From the NCBI RefSeq assembly GCF_003018235.1, contig NZ_CP027437.1: DNA of 64,000 nt. One strand, written 5' to 3'. The notes beneath the pieces were generated by a model. That model saw only the letters and a program-made list of their open reading frames with translations. It was not told where the DNA came from and did not search any database. This DNA comes from Escherichia coli (GTDB lineage Bacteria; Pseudomonadota; Gammaproteobacteria; Enterobacterales; Enterobacteriaceae). Every line of letters starts with the position of its first letter. Position 1 is the stretch's first letter. The translations under genes and the position numbers were made by a program. This document shows, piece by piece, positions 22,853 to 42,349 of this stretch.

Positions 22853-22874
22853 AGTGTTGCCTTTTTGTTATCAA

Positions 22875-22903
22875 TAAAAAAGGCCCCCCGATTTGGGAGG
22901 CCT
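22875..22903 (-). terminator. pheA attenuator terminator
   Basis: On the minus strand AGGCCTCCCAAATCGGGGGGCCT hairpin followed by TTTTTT, between the pheL stop and pheA start. Confidence 0.6.
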
Positions 22904-22950
22904 TATTGTTCGTCTTCGCATTCTGTTTCACACGACGAAACGCCTCCCAT

Positions 22951-22998
22951 TCAGGGGAAGGTAAAAAAGAATGCGAAGAAAAACGGTGTGTGTTTCAT
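22951..22998 (-). CDS. pheL: pheA leader peptide
   Basis: Encodes MKHTPFFFAFFFTFP* (Phe-rich 15-aa leader). Confidence 0.9.
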   Translation of the reverse strand: MKHTPFFFAFFFTFP

Positions 22999-23163
22999 GT
23001 TTGTTTCCTTAAGTGACTTCAGTACAGTACCCGTACTGTTTTCACGCTGTCAACAAAAAACGCGCCCGAAGGTGCTTTAATGAGGAGTGCCGCTTCTTTA
23101 TGTCTGTGAATTATCAACAACTTACGGGGAAACATAACCGCAAGAAGCGACAAGAAATTACAA

Positions 23164-25485: not shown

Positions 25486-26281
25486 ACACAGGAAAGTTAT
25501 GGGCTTGTGTGATTCAGAAAGTGTGAGGTTACGTGCAAAATGGCCAGACATGTAAAAAAGAACTTGAATGCAGTGTCGGCATGGTGGTATTTTTCATCTG
25601 CTGCCACAGTGCTGGCAGTCGGGAATACCACCCCGTATGTGTCAACGGCGACATCAGACGCCGCAAGCGTCTTTTTTGTTGTCGTAACCTTATACGCCAT
25701 GAAGCTCCATTTTATGGTGCGGTGTTATCCATTAAGAGCCGTTGCAAGCGCCTCTACCGGAAGGGGCTGGATAACATCCACCACCATGTCAATGGTAGCT
25801 CAGGCGGGGCCGACTTCGGTCGGGCCGGTTTCCGTTGGCACCGGTAGTGGTATCCCCGTCTGGGCTATCGCCAGTGAGCATACCACCTCCTGCGATAGCA
25901 GTATGTTATGTCAACGGAGGCTGCCTGAATGGCTACAATCCCAACCCAAAAGCGCCCAAAATCCGCGCTCCCCCAGCTCAGCAGTGACTGTCGTCGCCGG
26001 ATACACCGTGTGCAGATGGTTACGCTCCATTATTACATTCAGTGTCTCGCTGATAATCCGTGTTCAGTTGATTTTTGTTTTCCGTACTTATTGTCTTACA
26101 TCCACGATGATATTAAGGCTATAGATAATGAGTTAATTTCTCTTGGCCTGTTTGAACAGGCGATGGGAAAGAAAAAACGACGATAGTTTTCATCGTTATT
26201 AATTAACGTTGTCAGGAAGTATTAAACACACCGCTCACGCGGCGGGAATCTTACATCTTAAATATCTGACGAGGTGGAAAC

Positions 26282-32401: not shown

Positions 32402-32894
32402 CCACGGATAAAGAGAACTAAATTTCGTCAGAATTAACAGGAAATAACTGGAACGAAAAATACACCGCTTACGCGGCGGGGTTTCTGCAACCTTAAAACA
32501 GGGTAAGAGAAATGGCAGAGATGATGAACAATAAACTCTTCATAACCAGTCTCTTTAAGTTGACTGGCCGGGAGTAACGACCAGTGGCAATACAAAAAAA
32601 CCGCTTGCCAGCGTTTGTCTGGTCGGGTTACATTTCCCGTGCACCTCATAAAACGGGTGCCGGGATTCTCAACCCGCAGAAGAACAGAGCGCATAACCGC
32701 GCCAGCGGTTTTTTTATGCGTGCCGTATCGTCACACCTTTTTCGCACACGAATTATGGCGGGGCGTACGGGGCCGACTTCGGTCGGGCCGGATCCTCTGT
32801 TCTCCGGTGTTGAGAACCCCGTACGTCTCGCCACCCCGAGATTCTCAACTCTGGATGGTGAGTTATGTCTATCACTGAACAGAGGTTACCCCTT

Positions 32895-35253: not shown

Positions 35254-35523
35254 ATGAGAGGACTGGAGCTTGAACGAATGACGCCGGAAAAAATGCATGC
35301 AATTGGTATGGAGTTCATCAGGAGATCTGAGGCCATGACGCAGGCGGGGATGACAAAAGACGCTGTCAGAAAAAATCTGCTTCCGGCGATACAGCGCCTG
35401 AACCGTGCAAAACATGAGCTTCAGATGGTGGTTGATCAGATGATCGATAAGGCAGCAGAGCTGGAAAAGTATAGCAGTGCGCTTGAAAAAATCATTCAGG
35501 ATATTGTGGGCACTGAGCAGTAA
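35254..35523 (+). CDS. Hypothetical coiled-coil protein
   Basis: GAGGTGG SD; 89 aa. Confidence 0.4.
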   Translation: MRGLELERMTPEKMHAIGMEFIRRSEAMTQAGMTKDAVRKNLLPAIQRLNRAKHELQMVVDQMIDKAAELEKYSSALEKIIQDIVGTEQ

Positions 35524-35533
35524 GAGGTGGGGT

Positions 35534-36613
35534 ATGCAGGCGATCCTGACGGTATTCCCGCAGCGTAATGCCGGGATAACACTGATGAAAACAGGTAATC
35601 TGACAGCGCGGTTCAGGGACGGGCAGAGAATAATGATAAGGGATGTTCCGTCTGTGATGGCTGGGATGCCATCAGGAGAAATTCCGTCATCAGGACAGAG
35701 GCTGGCGGAAGAGGAAGGACTGACGGCTTTCTTTGCTGACGGAAGGGTAATAAAGCGTGCTGGTGGCAGTGATGCCATGGCGCGTTGGGTGAGCAGGATT
35801 GCAGGCTGCCAGTGTGAGAATGGTGATCACGTGGAGAACATGACAACAGCGCGGACAATGCAGGGAGAGGCGCTTCGGTTATGCCATGCCTGTGATAATC
35901 ATCATTATATGAAAGGATATCGGGCGCTGGCAGATGTGGCAGCCAGAAATCGTGCAGAATGGCTGATGGATTATATCAGGATGAGTCTGGGGCTGGGGGA
36001 AGATCATCAGGTGACCATTCCTGAGTTGTTTTGCTGGGCAGTGCTGAATGATGTGGCAGATGCTGTTCCGGTTATGATCGTAAGGCGTATCAGACAATTG
36101 CCGGAAGAGGAAAAGCTGAGCGGCACGATGAAAGAAGCAGATATTAATCCCTGGCAGACATCAGCAGGCACAGTGGTGAAGAAACTGGCAGATAATGCGA
36201 AGAGCGTTAATGTGTGCAATGTGCGGGTCAGACATGCAGTACGCCAGGAAGAACACAAAGAAATGGAAAAACCGGTGCTGAAACTTGTTGCAGACAGTGA
36301 TCCGGCTGCGGGCTATATGAGGAAGCCCAGAATGCAGCGGCTGTCTCTGCCGGGTTATACCTCGTGGGTGAAGCGTCAGCGATGCTGTGGATGCGGGAAA
36401 CCTGCAGATGATCCGCATCACATCACCGGGCACGGTTTTGGTGGTGCAGGGATAAAAGCCAGTGATTTGTTTGTGATCCCGCTGTGTCGGCAATGTCATC
36501 AGGAATTACACAATGACAGCAAGGCATGGGAGGAGAAAAACGGCAGTCAGTTGCTGTGGGTGATAAGGACGCTGGACAGGGCAGCGGGCATTGGCGCTTT
36601 AGTTGGGGGGTAA
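35534..36613 (+). CDS. Hypothetical protein with C-terminal HNH-like Cys/His nuclease motif
   Basis: CCGCGKPADDPHHITGHGFGGAGIKASDLFVIPLCRQCHQELHND; translationally coupled to upstream gene. Confidence 0.55.
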   Translation: MQAILTVFPQRNAGITLMKTGNLTARFRDGQRIMIRDVPSVMAGMPSGEIPSSGQRLAEEEGLTAFFADGRVIKRAGGSDAMARWVSRIAGCQCENGDHVENMTTARTMQGEALRLCHACDNHHYMKGYRALADVAARNRAEWLMDYIRMSLGLGEDHQVTIPELFCWAVLNDVADAVPVMIVRRIRQLPEEEKLSGTMKEADINPWQTSAGTVVKKLADNAKSVNVCNVRVRHAVRQEEHKEMEKPVLKLVADSDPAAGYMRKPRMQRLSLPGYTSWVKRQRCCGCGKPADDPHHITGHGFGGAGIKASDLFVIPLCRQCHQELHNDSKAWEEKNGSQLLWVIRTLDRAAGIGALVGG

Positions 36614-36614
36614 C

Positions 36615-37319
36615 ATGACACCGCAACAGATGGTATGGGCGAGAGAGCAGGTTATTTTTGCACTGAATCCACCGGATAAACGTCAGAAGGGGCAACTGGA
36701 GGCATTTGGTGATTTTGCCAGGTCAGACACCAGGCGTTACGGGAGGCAGAGAAACAGGACACTGAACATTGATGGCCGGTGGTATTGTCAGGATGGTGAT
36801 CCGGTACATGCTGCGGCAACAGCCTGTTATGCAATACAACCGGATATGATCACCAGGGAAGCGTTCAGAACGGCACAACTGAGGAGGAGGATTTATTGTC
36901 TGGAGGATTATCATCGGGCCTGGGTGTTATTCAGTTACAGCTTGCAGAAAAAACGAATACACCATCTTCTGGTCAGTGAGTACATCTGGATGAGGATGTT
37001 CGAGCGGTTGCAGGGGAAACGGGTTACGGACAGGATGACAGGAAATCTGATTGAAATAGCGAGGATGGCTGCATGGAATGCTGCAGTGACAGCCGGTGGG
37101 ATTGTTGCAGGTAAGGTTCTGATTGCTCCTTCATGTGCGGCGCAGATTGCAGGTGTAAAACCAAACACATGGAGTCAGCATTACAAGGCTCACTGGTGTT
37201 TTATGCATGAAGTATGCGATGAACTGGATCATGAGGCGCTGGTGACCATTACAGGAATAAAAAATCACCAAAAAAACGGCGAAAAATATAAATTTGCTAA
37301 AGTGAATATTTTAAGGTAG
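36615..37319 (+). CDS. Hypothetical protein (234 aa); a late-gene antiterminator role is possible by position only
   Basis: Last long ORF before a terminator and the late region; no motif recognised with confidence. Confidence 0.4.
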   Translation: MTPQQMVWAREQVIFALNPPDKRQKGQLEAFGDFARSDTRRYGRQRNRTLNIDGRWYCQDGDPVHAAATACYAIQPDMITREAFRTAQLRRRIYCLEDYHRAWVLFSYSLQKKRIHHLLVSEYIWMRMFERLQGKRVTDRMTGNLIEIARMAAWNAAVTAGGIVAGKVLIAPSCAAQIAGVKPNTWSQHYKAHWCFMHEVCDELDHEALVTITGIKNHQKNGEKYKFAKVNILR

Positions 37320-37365
37320 ATTTGAGGCAAATTTGATAGTCTGCCGTATTTGTAAGCAGAGCATA

Positions 37366-37389
37366 AACCCGCATATTGCGGGTTTTTTT
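37366..37389 (+). terminator. Rho-independent terminator
   Basis: ACCCGC-atatt-GCGGGT hairpin followed by TTTTTTT. Confidence 0.55.
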
Positions 37390-37513
37390 ATGCCCGAAAT
37401 TTTCCCTCAGCGCAATAAATACGCTGGTGGTTGTGAGTACCGGTCTTTCAGCTTGCTGGCTTTTTCGACAAGAGTTATTGGTATGCCACGTTAACCGGAC
37501 AGGGGGAAAAGAC

Positions 37514-37711
37514 ATGCTGAAACAGCAGGATATGACAGAAACCGCCAGGGTGGTGTTTAATGAATTAAGCATTACCGAACCGGCGACCGTCGGGGAAATA
37601 GCGCAGAATACCTGCCTTTCACGTGAACGCTGCCAGTTAATACTGACTCAGCTTGTTATGGCGGGTCTGGCTGACTATCAGTTCGGTTGTTACAGACGCC
37701 TTCAGCAATGA
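37514..37711 (+). CDS. Small winged-helix-like protein (paralog 4)
   Basis: TARVVFNELSITEPATVGEIAQNTCLSRERCQLILTQLVMAGL; GGGGG SD; precedes the methyltransferase. Confidence 0.5.
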   Translation: MLKQQDMTETARVVFNELSITEPATVGEIAQNTCLSRERCQLILTQLVMAGLADYQFGCYRRLQQ

Positions 37712-37862
37712 AGGCATTCTTTTATTGTGAAGATGGGCGACTGGTTAGGTGTTACAGCACCCAACCAGTCATTCGCTCATGCTTGAAGGTCACAAGCGAA
37801 CCCAGGCCCACCGCTTTTGCACAAAAGCCCGGAGAGCCTACCGGAGATGAGTTTGTTGATCT

Positions 37863-38930
37863 ATGACGCATGTTGTAAAAATATCAGAAAGTGAACTGGT
37901 CAATGCTGACTGCCTGGAATTTATACACACGTTGCCAGATGACAGTATTGACCTGATCGTTACCGATCCACCGTACTTTAAAGTGAAACCCAATGGCTGG
38001 GATAACCAGTGGAAGGGTGATGAAGATTACCTGAAGTGGCTGGATCAGTGTCTTGCGCAGTTCTGGCGGGTGCTGAAACCTGCCGGAAGTCTTTACCTGT
38101 TCTGTGGCCATCGCCTGGCATCTGACATCGAAATCATGATGCGTGAACGCTTTAATGTGCTGAACCATATTATCTGGGCGAAGCCGTCCGGACGCTGGAA
38201 CGGATGCAACAAGGAAAGCCTGAGGGCGTATTTCCCGGCCACAGAGCGCATTCTGTTCGCGGAACACTATCTGGAGCCGTATCGCCCGAAAGATGATGGT
38301 TATGAGGCGAAGGGCAGGGCACTGAAACAGCATGTGATGGCACCGCTGATTTCTTACTTTCGTGATGCGCGTGCCGCCCTTGGGATAACGGCAAAACAGA
38401 TTGCTGATGTCACAGGAAAGAAAAACATGGTGTCGCACTGGTTCAGTGCCAGTCAGTGGCAGCTGCCGAACGAAAGCGATTATCTGAAATTACAGGCGCT
38501 GTTTGCCCGGGTGGCAGAAGAGAAGCATCAGCGCGGAGAACTGGAAAAGCCACACCACCAGCTGGTGGTAACGTATACCTCACTGAACCGGCAGTATGCG
38601 GAGTTGCTGAGTGAATACAAAAATCTGCGCCGGTATTTTGGCGTGACGGCGCGGGTCCCGTACACCGATGTGTGGACGCACAAGCCGGTCCAGTTTTACC
38701 CGGGTAAACACCCCTGTGAAAAACCGGCGGAGATGCTGCGGCAGATAATTTGTGCGAGCAGCCGTCCTGGTGACATGGTGGCGGATTTCTTTATGGGGTC
38801 GGGCTCAACCATAAAAGCCGCTATGGCGCTGGGGCGTCGTGCAATTGGTGTTGAACTGGAAGAGGAACGTTTTGCGCAGACCGTGAAAGAGATTAGTCAT
38901 ATCCTGACAGGCTCAATTGATGACGGATAA
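37863..38930 (+). CDS. DNA methyltransferase, beta-class N6-adenine/N4-cytosine
   Basis: Motif IV DPPY (IVTDPPYF) precedes motif I FMGSGST; 355 aa. Confidence 0.85.
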   Translation: MTHVVKISESELVNADCLEFIHTLPDDSIDLIVTDPPYFKVKPNGWDNQWKGDEDYLKWLDQCLAQFWRVLKPAGSLYLFCGHRLASDIEIMMRERFNVLNHIIWAKPSGRWNGCNKESLRAYFPATERILFAEHYLEPYRPKDDGYEAKGRALKQHVMAPLISYFRDARAALGITAKQIADVTGKKNMVSHWFSASQWQLPNESDYLKLQALFARVAEEKHQRGELEKPHHQLVVTYTSLNRQYAELLSEYKNLRRYFGVTARVPYTDVWTHKPVQFYPGKHPCEKPAEMLRQIICASSRPGDMVADFFMGSGSTIKAAMALGRRAIGVELEEERFAQTVKEISHILTGSIDDG

Positions 38931-39381
38931 GGATGGATAAAGACATGGTCAGTTCAGGATGCGAAGCAAGTAAACAGATAAGGCTATAAAAAAAACTGAC
39001 AGTAGAAAAATAGCTTTTTCCCAGGTATTCATGAACACAATCTCTTAAAAGCGCCCGCTGATACCAGCGGGCAATACATACTGGCATTGATGTTAAGTTT
39101 ACAGGTTTCATTTATCGTATCGTGCGACACGACGTTGTTATGTTAATAAGTGTGATTTTTGATGTGAAATGTTTGTTGCGTGTTTTTTGATGGGTTTCTC
39201 ATTTTTCAGGCATCATCTCGTCACTGATGTGCAGCACAGCGATGAGGTGCTACTACTTCCACGGAGCGGATTTTGTCTTTTTTGTGGGTGGTAAAAATCT
39301 CCTTATAGCAGGATGTGATAATTATTTATCAGTATAATCTTATGAGATTGACGCGATTTCTCCGGATTTGTTAGAAGATCA

Positions 39382-39456
39382 TGCATGGTGAATCCACCTC
39401 AGCGGTGGGTCATAATGACCGCCTGTTCGCCGGTTCAATCCCTGCGGGGGCCACCA
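39382..39456 (+). pseudogene. tRNA-Ile(CAU)-like remnant: intact-looking anticodon loop/T-arm/acceptor-CCA 3' half joined to a non-tRNA 5' half
   Basis: 3' part ...GTCATAATGACCGCCTGTTCGCCGGTTCAATCCCTGCGGGGGCCACCA resembles an ileX-type tRNA; no complementary 5' acceptor strand, so no cloverleaf. Confidence 0.3.
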
Positions 39457-39457
39457 T

Positions 39458-39534
39458 GCGCCGTTAGCTCAGCTGGACAGAGCAATTGCCTTCTAAGCAA
39501 TCGGTCACTGGTTCGAATCCAGTATGGCGCACCA
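39458..39534 (+). tRNA. tRNA-Arg (anticodon UCU)
   Basis: Manual cloverleaf: acceptor GCGCCGT/ATGGCGC, D-arm GCTC..GAGC, anticodon loop CTTCTAA, T-arm ACTGG-TTCGAAT-CCAGT, CCA end. Confidence 0.85.
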
Positions 39535-39535
39535 T

Positions 39536-39610
39536 GCGGTCATCGTATAATGGCTATTACCTCGGCCTTCCAGGCTGATGATGCGGGTTCGATTCCAGCT
39601 GGCCGCTCCA
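39536..39610 (+). tRNA. tRNA-Gly (anticodon UCC)
   Basis: Manual cloverleaf: acceptor GCGGTCA/TGGCCGC, anticodon loop CTTCCAG, T-loop TTCGATT, CCA end; close to glyT tRNA as I recall it. Confidence 0.8.
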
Positions 39611-39630
39611 TAGAGGATTATGGGGACTGT

Positions 39631-39768
39631 ATGTTGAGTATTTTTCTGCGTTACCTTTCATCGGTAAAAATAAACACACAACAACTATTTATGCTGGCAT
39701 TAGCAATGATAGTTATTGGTTTTCTCGGAACTTGTTTATTTATTTACTATATTTTTGTCGATAATTAA
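39631..39768 (+). CDS. Hypothetical small hydrophobic peptide (45 aa) in moron position
   Basis: MLSIFLRYLSSVKINTQQLFMLALAMIVIGFLGTCLFIYYIFVDN; weak SD; lies between tRNAs and the esterase gene. Confidence 0.25.
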   Translation: MLSIFLRYLSSVKINTQQLFMLALAMIVIGFLGTCLFIYYIFVDN

Positions 39769-40321
39769 TATTTTTAGTATTTAGCCAGAGTGGCCCAAAC
39801 AGAAAATAAAGTTACTGTGAAACAGGGGGGCCTAATAAAAATAATCACCACTAAATTCGGGGCTTTAAAAATGCTAAGAACATCACATTTCATTATGCCG
39901 GGTACTGGAGAATAACATGATGTTTTGTTAAAAATGATTTTGCATGGTGAATCCCCCTGTGCGGCGGGGCATAATGACAGATGTTTGGTTGCGTATTGTA
40001 TAGGCAAGTTGCGGATTCTGTCTGGTCATTGCAGAATTCACCGGGAGGCACCCGGCACCATGCAGATAATTGTTTTGTGGATGATAATACCAGCCCCTCT
40101 CCGGAGGGGCTTTCTTATGGGCGAAAAAAAGCCCGGGGAGCCGGGCAATAGCATGAGATATACGTTTTTATAGACGTACAGATTTTAATCAGAATTTATG
40201 GGGCTGCGCAACTGCGTGGCCTTTTTTGTTTTGTGGGCTAAGGTTTTCCCCTTTGATTCGCCATGTGGCTGAACCTGTAGCCCGCCACTGTTCAGACGCA
40301 ATCCCGGCAAGGGGAGGAATA

Positions 40322-42349
40322 ATGGCATTTAAACACTACGATCTGGTCTCTGCCAGCAGCGGTGATGAACTGCAAAAGAAACTGACAGAAAAAATAAATG
40401 AAGGGTGGCAGCCATACGGTTCGCCGCTTGTTTCGTATGACGATAACGGGATGAAAATTATTCAGGCCATTGCAGCAGAGGGTGATGTCAGGATCCCGGT
40501 TGAAACGCCTGATGATGGTGGTGATTCACCGGTCACAATGACCTCCGGTGCACCTGATTATTATTATGTTGTTGTGCTTGCCGGACAGTCCAACGGCATG
40601 GCCTACGGTGAGGGGCTTCCGTTACCGGACTCTTATGACCGCCCGGACCCGCGCATTAAACAGCTGGCACGCCGCAGTACAGTGACGCCGGGTGGGGACG
40701 CCTGTGCATACAATGATGTGATTCCGGCTGACCATTGTCTGCATGATGTACAGGATATGAGCGGTGTTAATCATCCGAAAGCGGACCTGAATAAGGGGCA
40801 GTATGGCTGTGTCAGTCAGGGGCTGCATATTGCCAAAAAACTGCTGTCGTATATCCCGCAGAATGCAGGGATACTTCTGGTGCCCTGCTGCCGTGGTGGT
40901 TCTGCATTCACCACCGGGGCTGACGGCACATTCAGTGAGGTCACCGGCGCATCCGCTGACGCTGCACGCTGGGGTGCCGGTAAACCCCTGTATCAGGACA
41001 TGGTCAGCCGGACAAAAGCGGCGCTGGCCAAGAACCCGAAAAACAGGCTGCTGGCGGTGGTATGGATGCAGGGCGAGGCAGACCTTGCGTCAGGCAGTCA
41101 GCAGCATAACGGGTTATTCACGGCCATGGTTCAGCAGTTCCGGACTGACCTGTCCTCACTTGCTGCGCAGTGCGTGAGTGGCAATGCTGCCACGGTGCCG
41201 TGGATTTGTGGTGATACCACGTATTACTGGAAGGCCACTTATGGCACACAGTATGAAGCCATTTATGGAGCCTATAAGAATCTGTCCGCACAGAATATTT
41301 TCTTTGTACCGTTCCTGACAGATGAAAACGGCGCAAACACGCCAACGAACCAGCCAGCGGAAGACCCGGATATTGTGGCTGTGGGGTATTACGGTGCGGC
41401 ATCACGAACACAGGCGAACTGGACGACAGCGCAACGTGACAGCCATTTCAGCACCTGGGCGCGTCGCGGCATCATTTCTGACCGCCTTGCGTCAGCTATT
41501 CTGGTGCACGCGGGACGTACGTCAGGTTTCATTACCGGTGAAGTTTCTTCTCCGGACACTGCATCCGGTGACGGTGGTTCGTCCACTGATGCGGGTACGG
41601 ATGCGGGGACCGGCACTTCCGGAACAGGAAGTGATGACGCTACCGGAACGACACCAGCCACCGCTGCCATTATTCTGAGTGCAGACGGAGGGGATGTTTC
41701 GGCACAGGGCTGGACGGTGGAAGGCACCACGGTGACCACCACGGCAAACACGGTGACTTCATCGGGTGAGGCGCTGGCGCAGAATGTGCTGAGTGTTCCG
41801 AAACAGAGCGGGGCAGCATGGAAGCTTGTTCATACCACCACAGATGAGCCAGCGGAACTGCTGAACAATGGCGGTGAGTTCCTGTGTCGTTTCCGTATCA
41901 CGGATACTGCCATTGCTGAGGGGCGTTATGCCTTTGGTCTTTACTGGCTTCCGGACGCACAGAAGATACCAGCCGGTGCGACATTCAATAAAACAGGAAG
42001 CGGGATGTCCCCGTCCATGCTCAACTTCTATGTCCAGACGGATGGCAGCAACATAAACCTGTTATCACACTGCAGTACGAAGAGTGCAGGGAATCTGAAG
42101 ATTGGCTCATTCGGTGCATTTAACAATGAATGGCATACCTTCCGTCTTCGCTACCATGGTGGCAATACGGCAAGAGCAACGGTGACGCTGGACAGTCAGG
42201 TGGTGGGAGATATAACGCTGTTATGTGCGCCGTCAGCGGCCAGTGCCGGTGACACTCTGTCGATGATAAGTATCACATCGGGTGATACATACAGTATTGA
42301 AGTGGAAAGCCTGAGTGTGACGGTGAACGGGGCTGCGGCAGCGGCGTGA
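40322..42349 (+). CDS. Prophage-type sialate O-acetylesterase-like protein (nanS-p-like)
   Basis: GGGGAGG SD; N-terminal MAFKHYDLV... domain then VVLAGQSNGMAYGEG esterase-like segment; located between tRNAs and holin as in Stx-type lambdoid prophages (recollection). Confidence 0.55.
   Translation: MAFKHYDLVSASSGDELQKKLTEKINEGWQPYGSPLVSYDDNGMKIIQAIAAEGDVRIPVETPDDGGDSPVTMTSGAPDYYYVVVLAGQSNGMAYGEGLPLPDSYDRPDPRIKQLARRSTVTPGGDACAYNDVIPADHCLHDVQDMSGVNHPKADLNKGQYGCVSQGLHIAKKLLSYIPQNAGILLVPCCRGGSAFTTGADGTFSEVTGASADAARWGAGKPLYQDMVSRTKAALAKNPKNRLLAVVWMQGEADLASGSQQHNGLFTAMVQQFRTDLSSLAAQCVSGNAATVPWICGDTTYYWKATYGTQYEAIYGAYKNLSAQNIFFVPFLTDENGANTPTNQPAEDPDIVAVGYYGAASRTQANWTTAQRDSHFSTWARRGIISDRLASAILVHAGRTSGFITGEVSSPDTASGDGGSSTDAGTDAGTGTSGTGSDDATGTTPATAAIILSADGGDVSAQGWTVEGTTVTTTANTVTSSGEALAQNVLSVPKQSGAAWKLVHTTTDEPAELLNNGGEFLCRFRITDTAIAEGRYAFGLYWLPDAQKIPAGATFNKTGSGMSPSMLNFYVQTDGSNINLLSHCSTKSAGNLKIGSFGAFNNEWHTFRLRYHGGNTARATVTLDSQVVGDITLLCAPSAASAGDTLSMISITSGDTYSIEVESLSVTVNGAAAAA

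Follow-up and report, generated by a model that had tools for sequence, protein, structure and literature searches.

Here we describe a 38-nt element that occurs twice around a prophage tRNA array in Escherichia coli, in a 64,000-nt stretch of contig NZ_CP027437.1 (assembly GCF_003018235.1) that is referred to throughout as the window. As the preliminary description of this DNA had reported, the element lies at 39382-39419 (the upstream copy, c1) and again at 39941-39978 (the downstream copy, c2), with 33 of its 38 positions identical and five different, and both copies share the layout TGCATGGTGAATCC-hairpin-CATAATGAC. Around them lie the start of a small RNA (sRNA) gene fused to half of a tRNA gene, two complete tRNA genes and an intact sRNA gene of the STnc100/PasD family; the RefSeq annotation lacks both the STnc100 gene and the c1 chimera. 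The features on which the argument turns are the following:

39348..39377, plus strand: promoter-like site of c1, read from the sequence (TTGACG 39348-39353, 18-nt spacer, TG 39369-39370, TAGAAG 39372-39377)
39366..39419, plus strand: STnc100/PasD-derived segment of c1, approximately -17 to +37 (STnc100 alleles align to 39366-39421; profile hidden Markov model (HMM) positions 1-43, E=1e-7)
39420..39457, plus strand: 3' half of a phage tRNA-Ile(CAU), a pseudogene remnant (alignment to the intact tRNA-Ile of SHP24 and 2015C-4944; BLAST)
39458..39534, plus strand: tRNA-Arg(UCU), intact (ARAGORN; Rfam 69.3 bits)
39536..39610, plus strand: tRNA-Gly(UCC) (ARAGORN; Rfam 46.6 bits, non-canonical pairs marked)
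39926..39941, plus strand: putative promoter -10 region of c2, TG 39926-39927, TAAAAA 39929-39934, then 7 nt to +1 (block kept upstream of all family members)
39942..~40117, plus strand: STnc100/PasD-family sRNA gene, intact (RF02076, 145.6 bits), with c2 as its first 37 nt

A repeat search lengthened the pair to 43 nt (39377-39419 and 39936-39978; 84% identity, spacing 559), and with 36 of 43 matches it was the top ungapped 43-mer self-match between 38900 and 40400, while 100 dinucleotide-preserving shuffles averaged 25.4 and reached 28 at most. Across the whole 64 kb, GCATGGTGAATCCNCC was confined to the two copies; together with the shuffles, this uniqueness rules out a chance repeat. The repeated module contains a -10-like sequence (TGtTAAAAA), the 5' strand of an 8-bp closing stem and a first hairpin. 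The sequence comparisons below identify the repeat as the promoter-proximal module, approximately -17 to +37, of an STnc100/PasD sRNA gene, with c2 as the intact gene and c1 as a rare recombination product; that c1 works as a promoter, that its leader is processed and that the leader has any role are inferred, and the explanation as a whole we regard as likely.

The Rfam model STnc100 (RF02076) matched 39912-40122 over its full length (positions 1-206) with a whole-model score of 145.6 bits against a gathering score of 47; related STnc100 loci score 107-171 bits with the same model. According to the Rfam structure line and a terminator scan, the gene has a closing stem formed by GCAUGGUG (39942-39949) and CACCAUGC (40056-40063, 115 nt downstream), a first hairpin, a likely single-stranded tail (40064-40091) and, after it, a terminator with a T-run (40092-40111). 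The minimum-free-energy fold of the c2 RNA retains the closing stem, and in the related locus L002 both of its sides are changed (GCATGATG/CATCATGC). PasD1 and PasD2 of enteropathogenic E. coli (EPEC) are abundant, Hfq-dependent RNAs with Northern and RIL-seq support that are expressed in uninduced lysogens (PMC8550237), and they are related to STnc100 (bioRxiv 10.64898/2026.05.13.724894), a prophage sRNA of Salmonella and Shiga toxin-producing E. coli (STEC) that lies 75 nt downstream of stx2 in Stx2 phages and has been detected in STEC outer-membrane vesicles (PMC12370729). Expression and Hfq dependence, known for the homologues PasD1/2 and STnc100, would be expected of c2 by likeness.

The start of the RNA can be placed by the same comparison. 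PasD2 is listed at NC_011601:741157-741328 (PMC8550237 Table S6), and position 741157 is the G of GCATGGTGAATCC, the estimated PasD2 start. Because PasD2 starts at this homologous G, the Rfam seed would include approximately 29 nt of promoter, and transcription of c2 most likely begins at the G of GCAUGGUG, at 39942. A block, TTGTTAAAAA / (T)TGTTAAAAA, stands 5-7 nt upstream of the start G in approximately 40 distinct family members, taken from E. coli genomes and IMG/VR, and many of these also have a TTG(T/C)CT or TTGACT hexamer 17-18 nt above it; the conserved block and hexamer look like an extended -10 promoter. The predicted seed of PasD falls in the tail equivalent to 40064-40091. In c2, pairing of GCAUGGUG with CACCAUGC would leave free a single-stranded tail and a terminator, whose PasD equivalents contain the seed and, presumably, the site for Hfq. 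Within this known sRNA family, c2 is an ordinary new allele.

Members of this family also occur in tandem arrays of two to four copies, on IMG/VR contigs and in phage vB_EcoS-640R1 (L113 6765-9700; L099 9152-9600; L026; L130 1569-2226). Its members share a modular build, in which the middle, tail and terminator vary but not the 5' module or the 3' CCGGGAGGCACCCGGCACCATGC clamp.

Copy 1 begins in the same way and then continues as tRNA sequence. Its first part includes the -10 region, a closing-stem 5' strand (GCATGGTG, 39383-39390) and the hairpin CCACC-TCAGC-GGTGG (39394-39408); in alignment it tracks STnc100 alleles to 39419 (...CATAATGAC) and tRNA-Ile(CAU) from 39420 (CCGCC...) to the CCA at 39454-39456. 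The STnc100 profile HMM is confident on c1 to model position ~35 and loses its signal beyond. The junction falls within the anticodon loop (...CATAATGAC/CGCC..., with the slash marking the join), and its sequence can be compared with those of the two parental genes:

STnc100: GGGGCATAATGAC/AGATG
tRNA-Ile: GGCTCATAAC/CGCCAGG
chimera c1: GGGGCATAATGAC/CGCCTG

From this comparison, the join used few shared bases (CATAA / AC). The tRNA-Ile remnant comprises the variable loop, the T arm (39429-39445), the acceptor 3' strand GGGGGCC, ACCA and a 1-nt spacer, and BLAST matched 39420-39456 to annotated tRNA-Ile genes at 86.7% over 45 nt. The earlier recognition of a 3' half resembling that of a CAU-anticodon tRNA-Ile was correct in this respect, but the T arm is not the perfect one that had been described: it has a C.U mismatch (GCCGG/CCTGC), the one T-stem mismatch in a T arm, discriminator and CCA otherwise homologous to tRNA-Ile. 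It was also rightly seen that the 5' half is not tRNA-like, for STnc100-derived sequence replaces it and recurs 559 bp downstream. No acceptor stem, D arm or anticodon stem is present: GGGGGCC has no GGCCCCC partner, there is no D arm, and the CAUAA of c1 lies within a 3-nt-loop hairpin (GGUCA-UAA-UGACC). ARAGORN, which the preliminary description had proposed as a check, called no tRNA at 39382-39457, and Rfam likewise gave none even at E<=10. A functional but divergent tRNA-Ile was rejected after neither tool called one in six variants (the window and five related loci).

Nor does c1 qualify as an sRNA gene of its own. It scored 25.8 bits against the RF02076 gathering score of 47, with the model stretched over 39355-39586, and it lacks its own terminator and seed-bearing tail, the sequence past +37 being tRNA-derived; between 39383 and 40092 the terminator scan found no terminator, only a weak hairpin without a T-run at 39606. 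Failing both as an STnc100 gene and as a tRNA, c1 is best described as a chimeric gene fragment. Ectopic recombination would have joined a truncated STnc100 module to the 3' half of tRNA-Ile(CAU), destroying the tRNA-Ile. The c1 of STEC299 is identical to the c2 of the window at 37 of 37 positions, and the tRNA-derived part of c1 differs from the tRNA-Ile of SHP24 at four positions; a 5' part that is a modern allele and a 3' part with four differences from a modern tRNA-Ile show that the fusion is recent and joined two modern sequences. No description of a fusion between an sRNA start and a tRNA half was met in the literature, in which no search aimed at such fusions was made.

Behind the remnant, two independent tools, ARAGORN and Rfam, call cloverleaves with their anticodons at 39458-39534 and 39536-39610. 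Both tRNAs had been said to fold cleanly, and while both calls stand, tRNA-Gly is not clean: its T stem (39583-39599) has a G39585.A39597 mismatch (CCAGC vs CCCGC in SHP24), and its 46.6 bits, against 62.7 bits for the tRNA-Gly of SHP24, suggest that it may be impaired. In SHP24 the undisturbed order is methylase, tRNA-Ile, tRNA-Thr, tRNA-Arg, tRNA-Gly, a small open reading frame (ORF), STnc100 and esterase; 2015C-4944 and phage vB_EcoS-640R1 have Q, pR'/tR', tRNA-Ile and so forth, then STnc100. The tRNA-Arg and tRNA-Gly of the window are ordinary members of this known lambdoid tRNA array. Compared with the array of O170:H18, that of the window has lost tRNA-Thr by an exact 77-nt deletion between CACCATGC direct repeats; STEC299 also keeps tRNA-Thr. 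The loss would be later than the fusion, would belong to the lineage of the window and would have proceeded via the CACCATGC repeats, a sequence of which five of 11 occurrences on either strand of the 64 kb fall within 39383-40063.

The inter-tRNA junctions read CACCA-T-GC (window 39452-39459 and 39530-39537; L003 3620-3710). In phage ON470612.1 (L130 1320-1365), the tRNA-Arg(UCU) gene breaks off within the anticodon arm (…CCTTCTAAGC, followed by unrelated sequence), which makes it the second tRNA of this phage locus to be cut short close to the anticodon loop. Between the array and the sRNA gene lies one further feature:

39631..39768, plus strand: unannotated 45-codon hydrophobic ORF (MLSIFLRYLSSVKINTQQLFMLALAMIVIGFLGTCLFIYYIFVDN) between tRNA-Gly and STnc100, kept in L003 and L004

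This ORF has no NCBIfam or PHROG match. DUF3927, the family that precedes PasD2 in EPEC, was tried as a candidate and showed no similarity.

The chimera is rare. With its junction k-mer CATAATGACCGCC, it occurs in 9 of 5,426 complete E. coli genomes and in none of 50,697 phage records, IMG/VR, JGI metagenome contigs and 100,044 species-representative (GTDB) genomes. Two lineages can be told apart, O170:H18 and STEC299 with the order c1-Thr-Arg-Gly and the window type with c1-Arg-Gly. The left flank of the chimera (39180-39365, marker TTATGAGATTGACG) is present only in the nine chimera-bearing genomes. Strain CFIAFB20140388 (NZ_CP076709.1) carries the chimera in two different prophages, at 1.156 Mb and 2.994 Mb.

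These two prophages differ in the Q module and have the c1-Arg-Gly-STnc100 segment in common. The window is 100% identical to one CFIAFB20140388 copy over 39300-40200 and follows the other upstream (98.4% over 5 kb; 35400-40400 compared), switching to it upstream of ~37300. Apparently prophages resident in one cell have swapped the segment, or else the window derives from a close relative.

Copy 1 probably serves as promoter and leader for tRNA-Arg and tRNA-Gly. Its TTGACG-18-TGtTAGAAG layout is that of the PasD2 promoter, the family pattern being TTG(T/C)CT or TTGACT, N17-18, TGtTAAAAA, N5-7 and a +1 G. As c1 retains this full promoter-like architecture, it most likely starts a transcript, with initiation expected near 39383; a consensus scan missed the site because its -10 lacks T6. 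With no terminator before 40092, the transcript would comprise a 75-nt chimeric leader, tRNA-Arg, tRNA-Gly, the 45-codon ORF and possibly STnc100. Cleavage by RNase P at 39457/39458, the 5' end of tRNA-Arg, would detach the 75-nt leader, and tRNA-Arg(UCU) and tRNA-Gly(UCC) would be driven by an sRNA-type promoter. Of the earlier suggestion that the repeat might be a late promoter, one part holds up, since the family-type layout makes a promoter plausible; the late-promoter type does not.

Alternatively, c1 may be a transcriptionally silent scar, with the tRNAs supplied by an upstream promoter or by Q-antiterminated late transcription only, which we consider possible but rather doubtful. Its -10 has decayed from TAAAAA (O170 lineage) to TAGAAG, which the scan missed, a perfect TATAAT stands at 39333-39338, and the late operon reads through the region. 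However, c1 keeps five of the six -35 positions (TTGACG) at the family spacing together with a TG extended -10, a motif that usually offsets weak hexamers, and the family promoters likewise lack T6, PasD being abundant regardless.

Several points weigh against our interpretation of c1 and c2 as it stands. The -10 of c1 is weaker than the TAAAAA of the family and fails the consensus scan, and its use as a promoter is what we infer from the layout; the TATAAT and Q-dependent late read-through are alternative sources of the tRNA transcript. The 5' end given for PasD2 was estimated from RNA-seq, not mapped as a primary end. A left-hand parent of the fusion, with the same flank and an intact STnc100 or tRNA-Ile gene, was not found in E. 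coli complete genomes, phage records or IMG/VR, and the fusion may have arisen either when two phages exchanged DNA unequally or when gene conversion copied a short patch of the STnc100 gene that lies 560-640 bp downstream.

Unequal crossing-over within a single array, which would give a simple tandem duplication, was considered and is unlikely, because the homology with the region upstream of c2 stops ~17-22 nt before the start. In E. coli M8 (L005 3019-3075), an intact STnc100 allele reads CATAATGACCGTCAGGT, 8/9 like the CCGCCAGGT of tRNA-Ile, at the place where c1 turns into tRNA; gene conversion may have placed a short patch there, copied from tRNA-Ile or from a chimera like c1.

It is unlikely that the chimeric RNA has a selected function, whether as a leader gating tRNA-Arg maturation or as a stable sRNA/tRNA-like hybrid. 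Such a function would find a basis in an 8-bp stem between GCAUGGUG (39383-39390) and CACCAUGC (39452-39459), which includes G1 and C2 of tRNA-Arg and appears in the predicted minimum-free-energy fold whether the leader is folded by itself or together with both tRNAs; the two lineages, diverged as they are, also both keep the module, and one strain has it in two prophages. The fold energies of the leader are ordinary, however, with unremarkable z-scores of -0.6 to -2.3, and among five distinct c1 sequences no pair was changed on both sides and there was no excess of covariation over shuffles. One variant, the 2.99-Mb copy, breaks the closing stem (GCATAGTG), most hairpins are mismatched (C.U in A8 and PS2), and so is the T stem of the window c1 (C.U). 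The 3' strand of the leader stem, CACCATGC, is already present at the tRNA junctions of the intact array, so that the complementarity was not built by selection in c1, and we treat it as an accident of the fusion.

Two comparisons between sequences point the same way. Divergence in the region is greatest in the STnc-derived part of c1, with 85% identity between the two lineages against 92-97% for the flanks (about 96%), the tRNAs and c2, and the fusion itself is very rare. The difference between the hairpins of the two copies, which had been presented as compensatory, is not covariation in one register: c2 pairs as CCCC(U)/(C)GGGG in the Rfam register, the family as CCCC(U)/(A)GGGG, and the CCACC/GGTGG of c1 is shifted. 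Moreover, the A that completes the CCACC/GGTGG pairing occurs in one of the five distinct c1 sequences, that of the window itself, and is found neither in the other prophage copy nor in four other strains. These observations suggest that the chimeric leader is drifting and is not under selection. A more specific proposal, that the STnc100/PasD 5' module has been co-opted for the prophage tRNA operon and that the leader pairing would mask the RNase P site, the supply of the rare-codon tRNA-Arg(UCU) being tuned by leader folding or by a binder of the sRNA 5' module, seems to us quite improbable.

The late promoter suggested earlier is contradicted by the sequence upstream, where the Q gene (36603-37319; PHROG 304, E=8e-42) is directly followed by a pR'-like promoter and a strong terminator:

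37294..37392, plus strand: pR'/tR'-like late promoter and terminator, likely the true one (TTGCTA-17-TAGATT over the Q stop codon, read by eye at 8/12, below the scan threshold)

The terminator scan places the terminator at 37365-37385, with a T-run, ~45 nt after the pR'-like promoter; the repeats lie 2.0 and 2.6 kb downstream of this pR'/tR'-like site, and the relatives L002 and ON470612 also have pR'/tR' after Q. The site corresponds to the expected short late-leader transcript (6S/StxS-like) of this prophage. The locus does belong to the late-gene part of a lambdoid prophage, and the repeat is promoter-like. Yet with a pR'-like promoter and its terminator placed directly after Q, as in L002 and ON470612, with the element otherwise found only at STnc100 gene starts, and with PasD expressed in uninduced lysogens (PMC8550237), we see next to no prospect that the repeats are a late-promoter or Q-utilisation (qut) site or an RNA-processing signal of the phage. 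A generic processing signal is contradicted in particular by the occurrence of the element, among the sequences examined, only as the STnc100 gene start and in the c1 chimera.

Descent of STnc100/PasD from a phage tRNA, with c1 as an evolutionary intermediate and not a recent fusion, is hardly credible either. The 3' closing strand of STnc100, CCCGGCACCATGC, resembles a T arm followed by CCA and the inter-tRNA junction, CACCATGC clusters in the locus, the sRNA gene stands at the end of tRNA arrays, and the CCGTCAGGT of the M8 allele is like the CCGCCAGGT of tRNA-Ile. Against this, the STnc100 HMM found no similarity in intact phage tRNAs (1.6-kb database, filters off), STnc100 gives no tRNA covariance-model signal at E<=10, and CATAAT is confined to one sub-family, the consensus being CgAcUg. 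The 5' part of c1 is also identical to a modern allele, and its 3' part has four differences from a modern tRNA-Ile. The proposal of a tRNA-derived regulatory module fares no better, the profile HMM being blank on intact phage tRNAs and only the part downstream of the repeat being tRNA-derived.

When tRNA ancestry of STnc100 was tried as a candidate, an nhmmer search of the family profile against intact phage tRNA arrays returned only the 11-nt CGGCACCATGC (E=0.26), and the candidate was rejected.

Just as implausible is a reading of the two copies as cassette ends, or as an att-type duplication that integration at tRNA-Ile left behind: integration classically leaves tRNA 3' halves as scars, and the direct repeats bracket tRNA-Arg, tRNA-Gly and the 45-codon ORF, but the window has no intact tRNA-Ile bearing the same 3' half, no empty site was found, the left flank occurring only with c1, the repeated sequence is not tRNA sequence, and c1 is not a cassette boundary, since in SHP24 the Arg-Gly-orf-STnc100 segment follows intact Ile-Thr.

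Downstream of the sRNA gene lies one further candidate:

40124..40179, minus strand: AsxR/AgvB-like anti-sRNA candidate (Rfam E-value mode; AsxR 44.5 bits against a gathering score of 63 and AgvB 28.4 against 56, both sub-threshold)

It faces the STnc100 terminator convergently, and L002 has an at-threshold AgvB match at the same position. Elsewhere the window contains two C4 antisense RNAs and an isrK-like RNA in the prophage, and the pheA leader and ssrA (tmRNA) of the host (coordinates of these RNAs: 25788-25875, 32641-32715, 32751-32838, 22874-22999 and 4756-5118).

We see in the repeat a curiosity of phage mosaicism. It is no new regulatory signal, but could be taken for one because the sRNA gene and the chimera are unannotated in RefSeq. 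The main value of the locus lies in its correct annotation and in a tidy, datable example of short-homology RNA-gene reshuffling in the virulence-associated lambdoid moron region, where the tRNA array lies together with the STnc100/PasD and AsxR/AgvB sRNAs and, in Stx phages, with the genes for Shiga toxin. Here a tRNA array received the start of an sRNA gene at the cost of one tRNA, and a second tRNA was precisely deleted between CACCATGC repeats. If the grafted promoter is active, rare-codon tRNAs would stand under a lysogen-active, sRNA-type promoter, a small change in the gift of the prophage to its host.

In relation to known systems, c2 resembles STnc100/PasD1-PasD2/EcOnc13 in its full length, 5' closing stem, first hairpin, CCGGGAGGCACCCGG hairpin and terminator, and it occupies the same lambdoid slot, between the Q/methylase/tRNA region and the DUF1737-SASA esterase gene. 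Copy 1, in contrast, has the -17 to +37 module of that family but lacks the sRNA body, the tail with the seed region and the terminator, and its 3' closing strand comes from the CCA end of a tRNA and the first two bases of the next one. A second comparison is with the 3'ETS-leuZ sponge, an sRNA born from a tRNA transcript: c1 would likewise be a non-tRNA segment co-transcribed with tRNAs and released by RNase P/E, but its leader stems from a gene fusion and not from a native spacer, and the likeness does not imply stability or targets. The lambda pR'-6S RNA and StxS, the latter reportedly described by Sy et al. in 2020 as a short transcript from the late promoter, share with STnc100 the character of a short terminated transcript in the lambdoid late region; they arise directly after Q (here 37294-37392), whereas STnc100 lies ~2.5 kb further downstream, as a distinct gene that has a promoter of its own. 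The closest setting is that of the Stx and lambdoid tRNA arrays, such as ileZ-argN-argO of 933W, reportedly described by Plunkett et al. in 1999. The array of the window lies at the same locus and has the same kinds of tRNA (Ile-CAU, Arg-UCU), intact in L002, L004 and ON470612; it differs in that tRNA-Ile is decapitated, tRNA-Thr deleted and tRNA-Gly(UCC) present, and it is headed by the start of an sRNA gene and not by a promoter-tRNA junction of its own.

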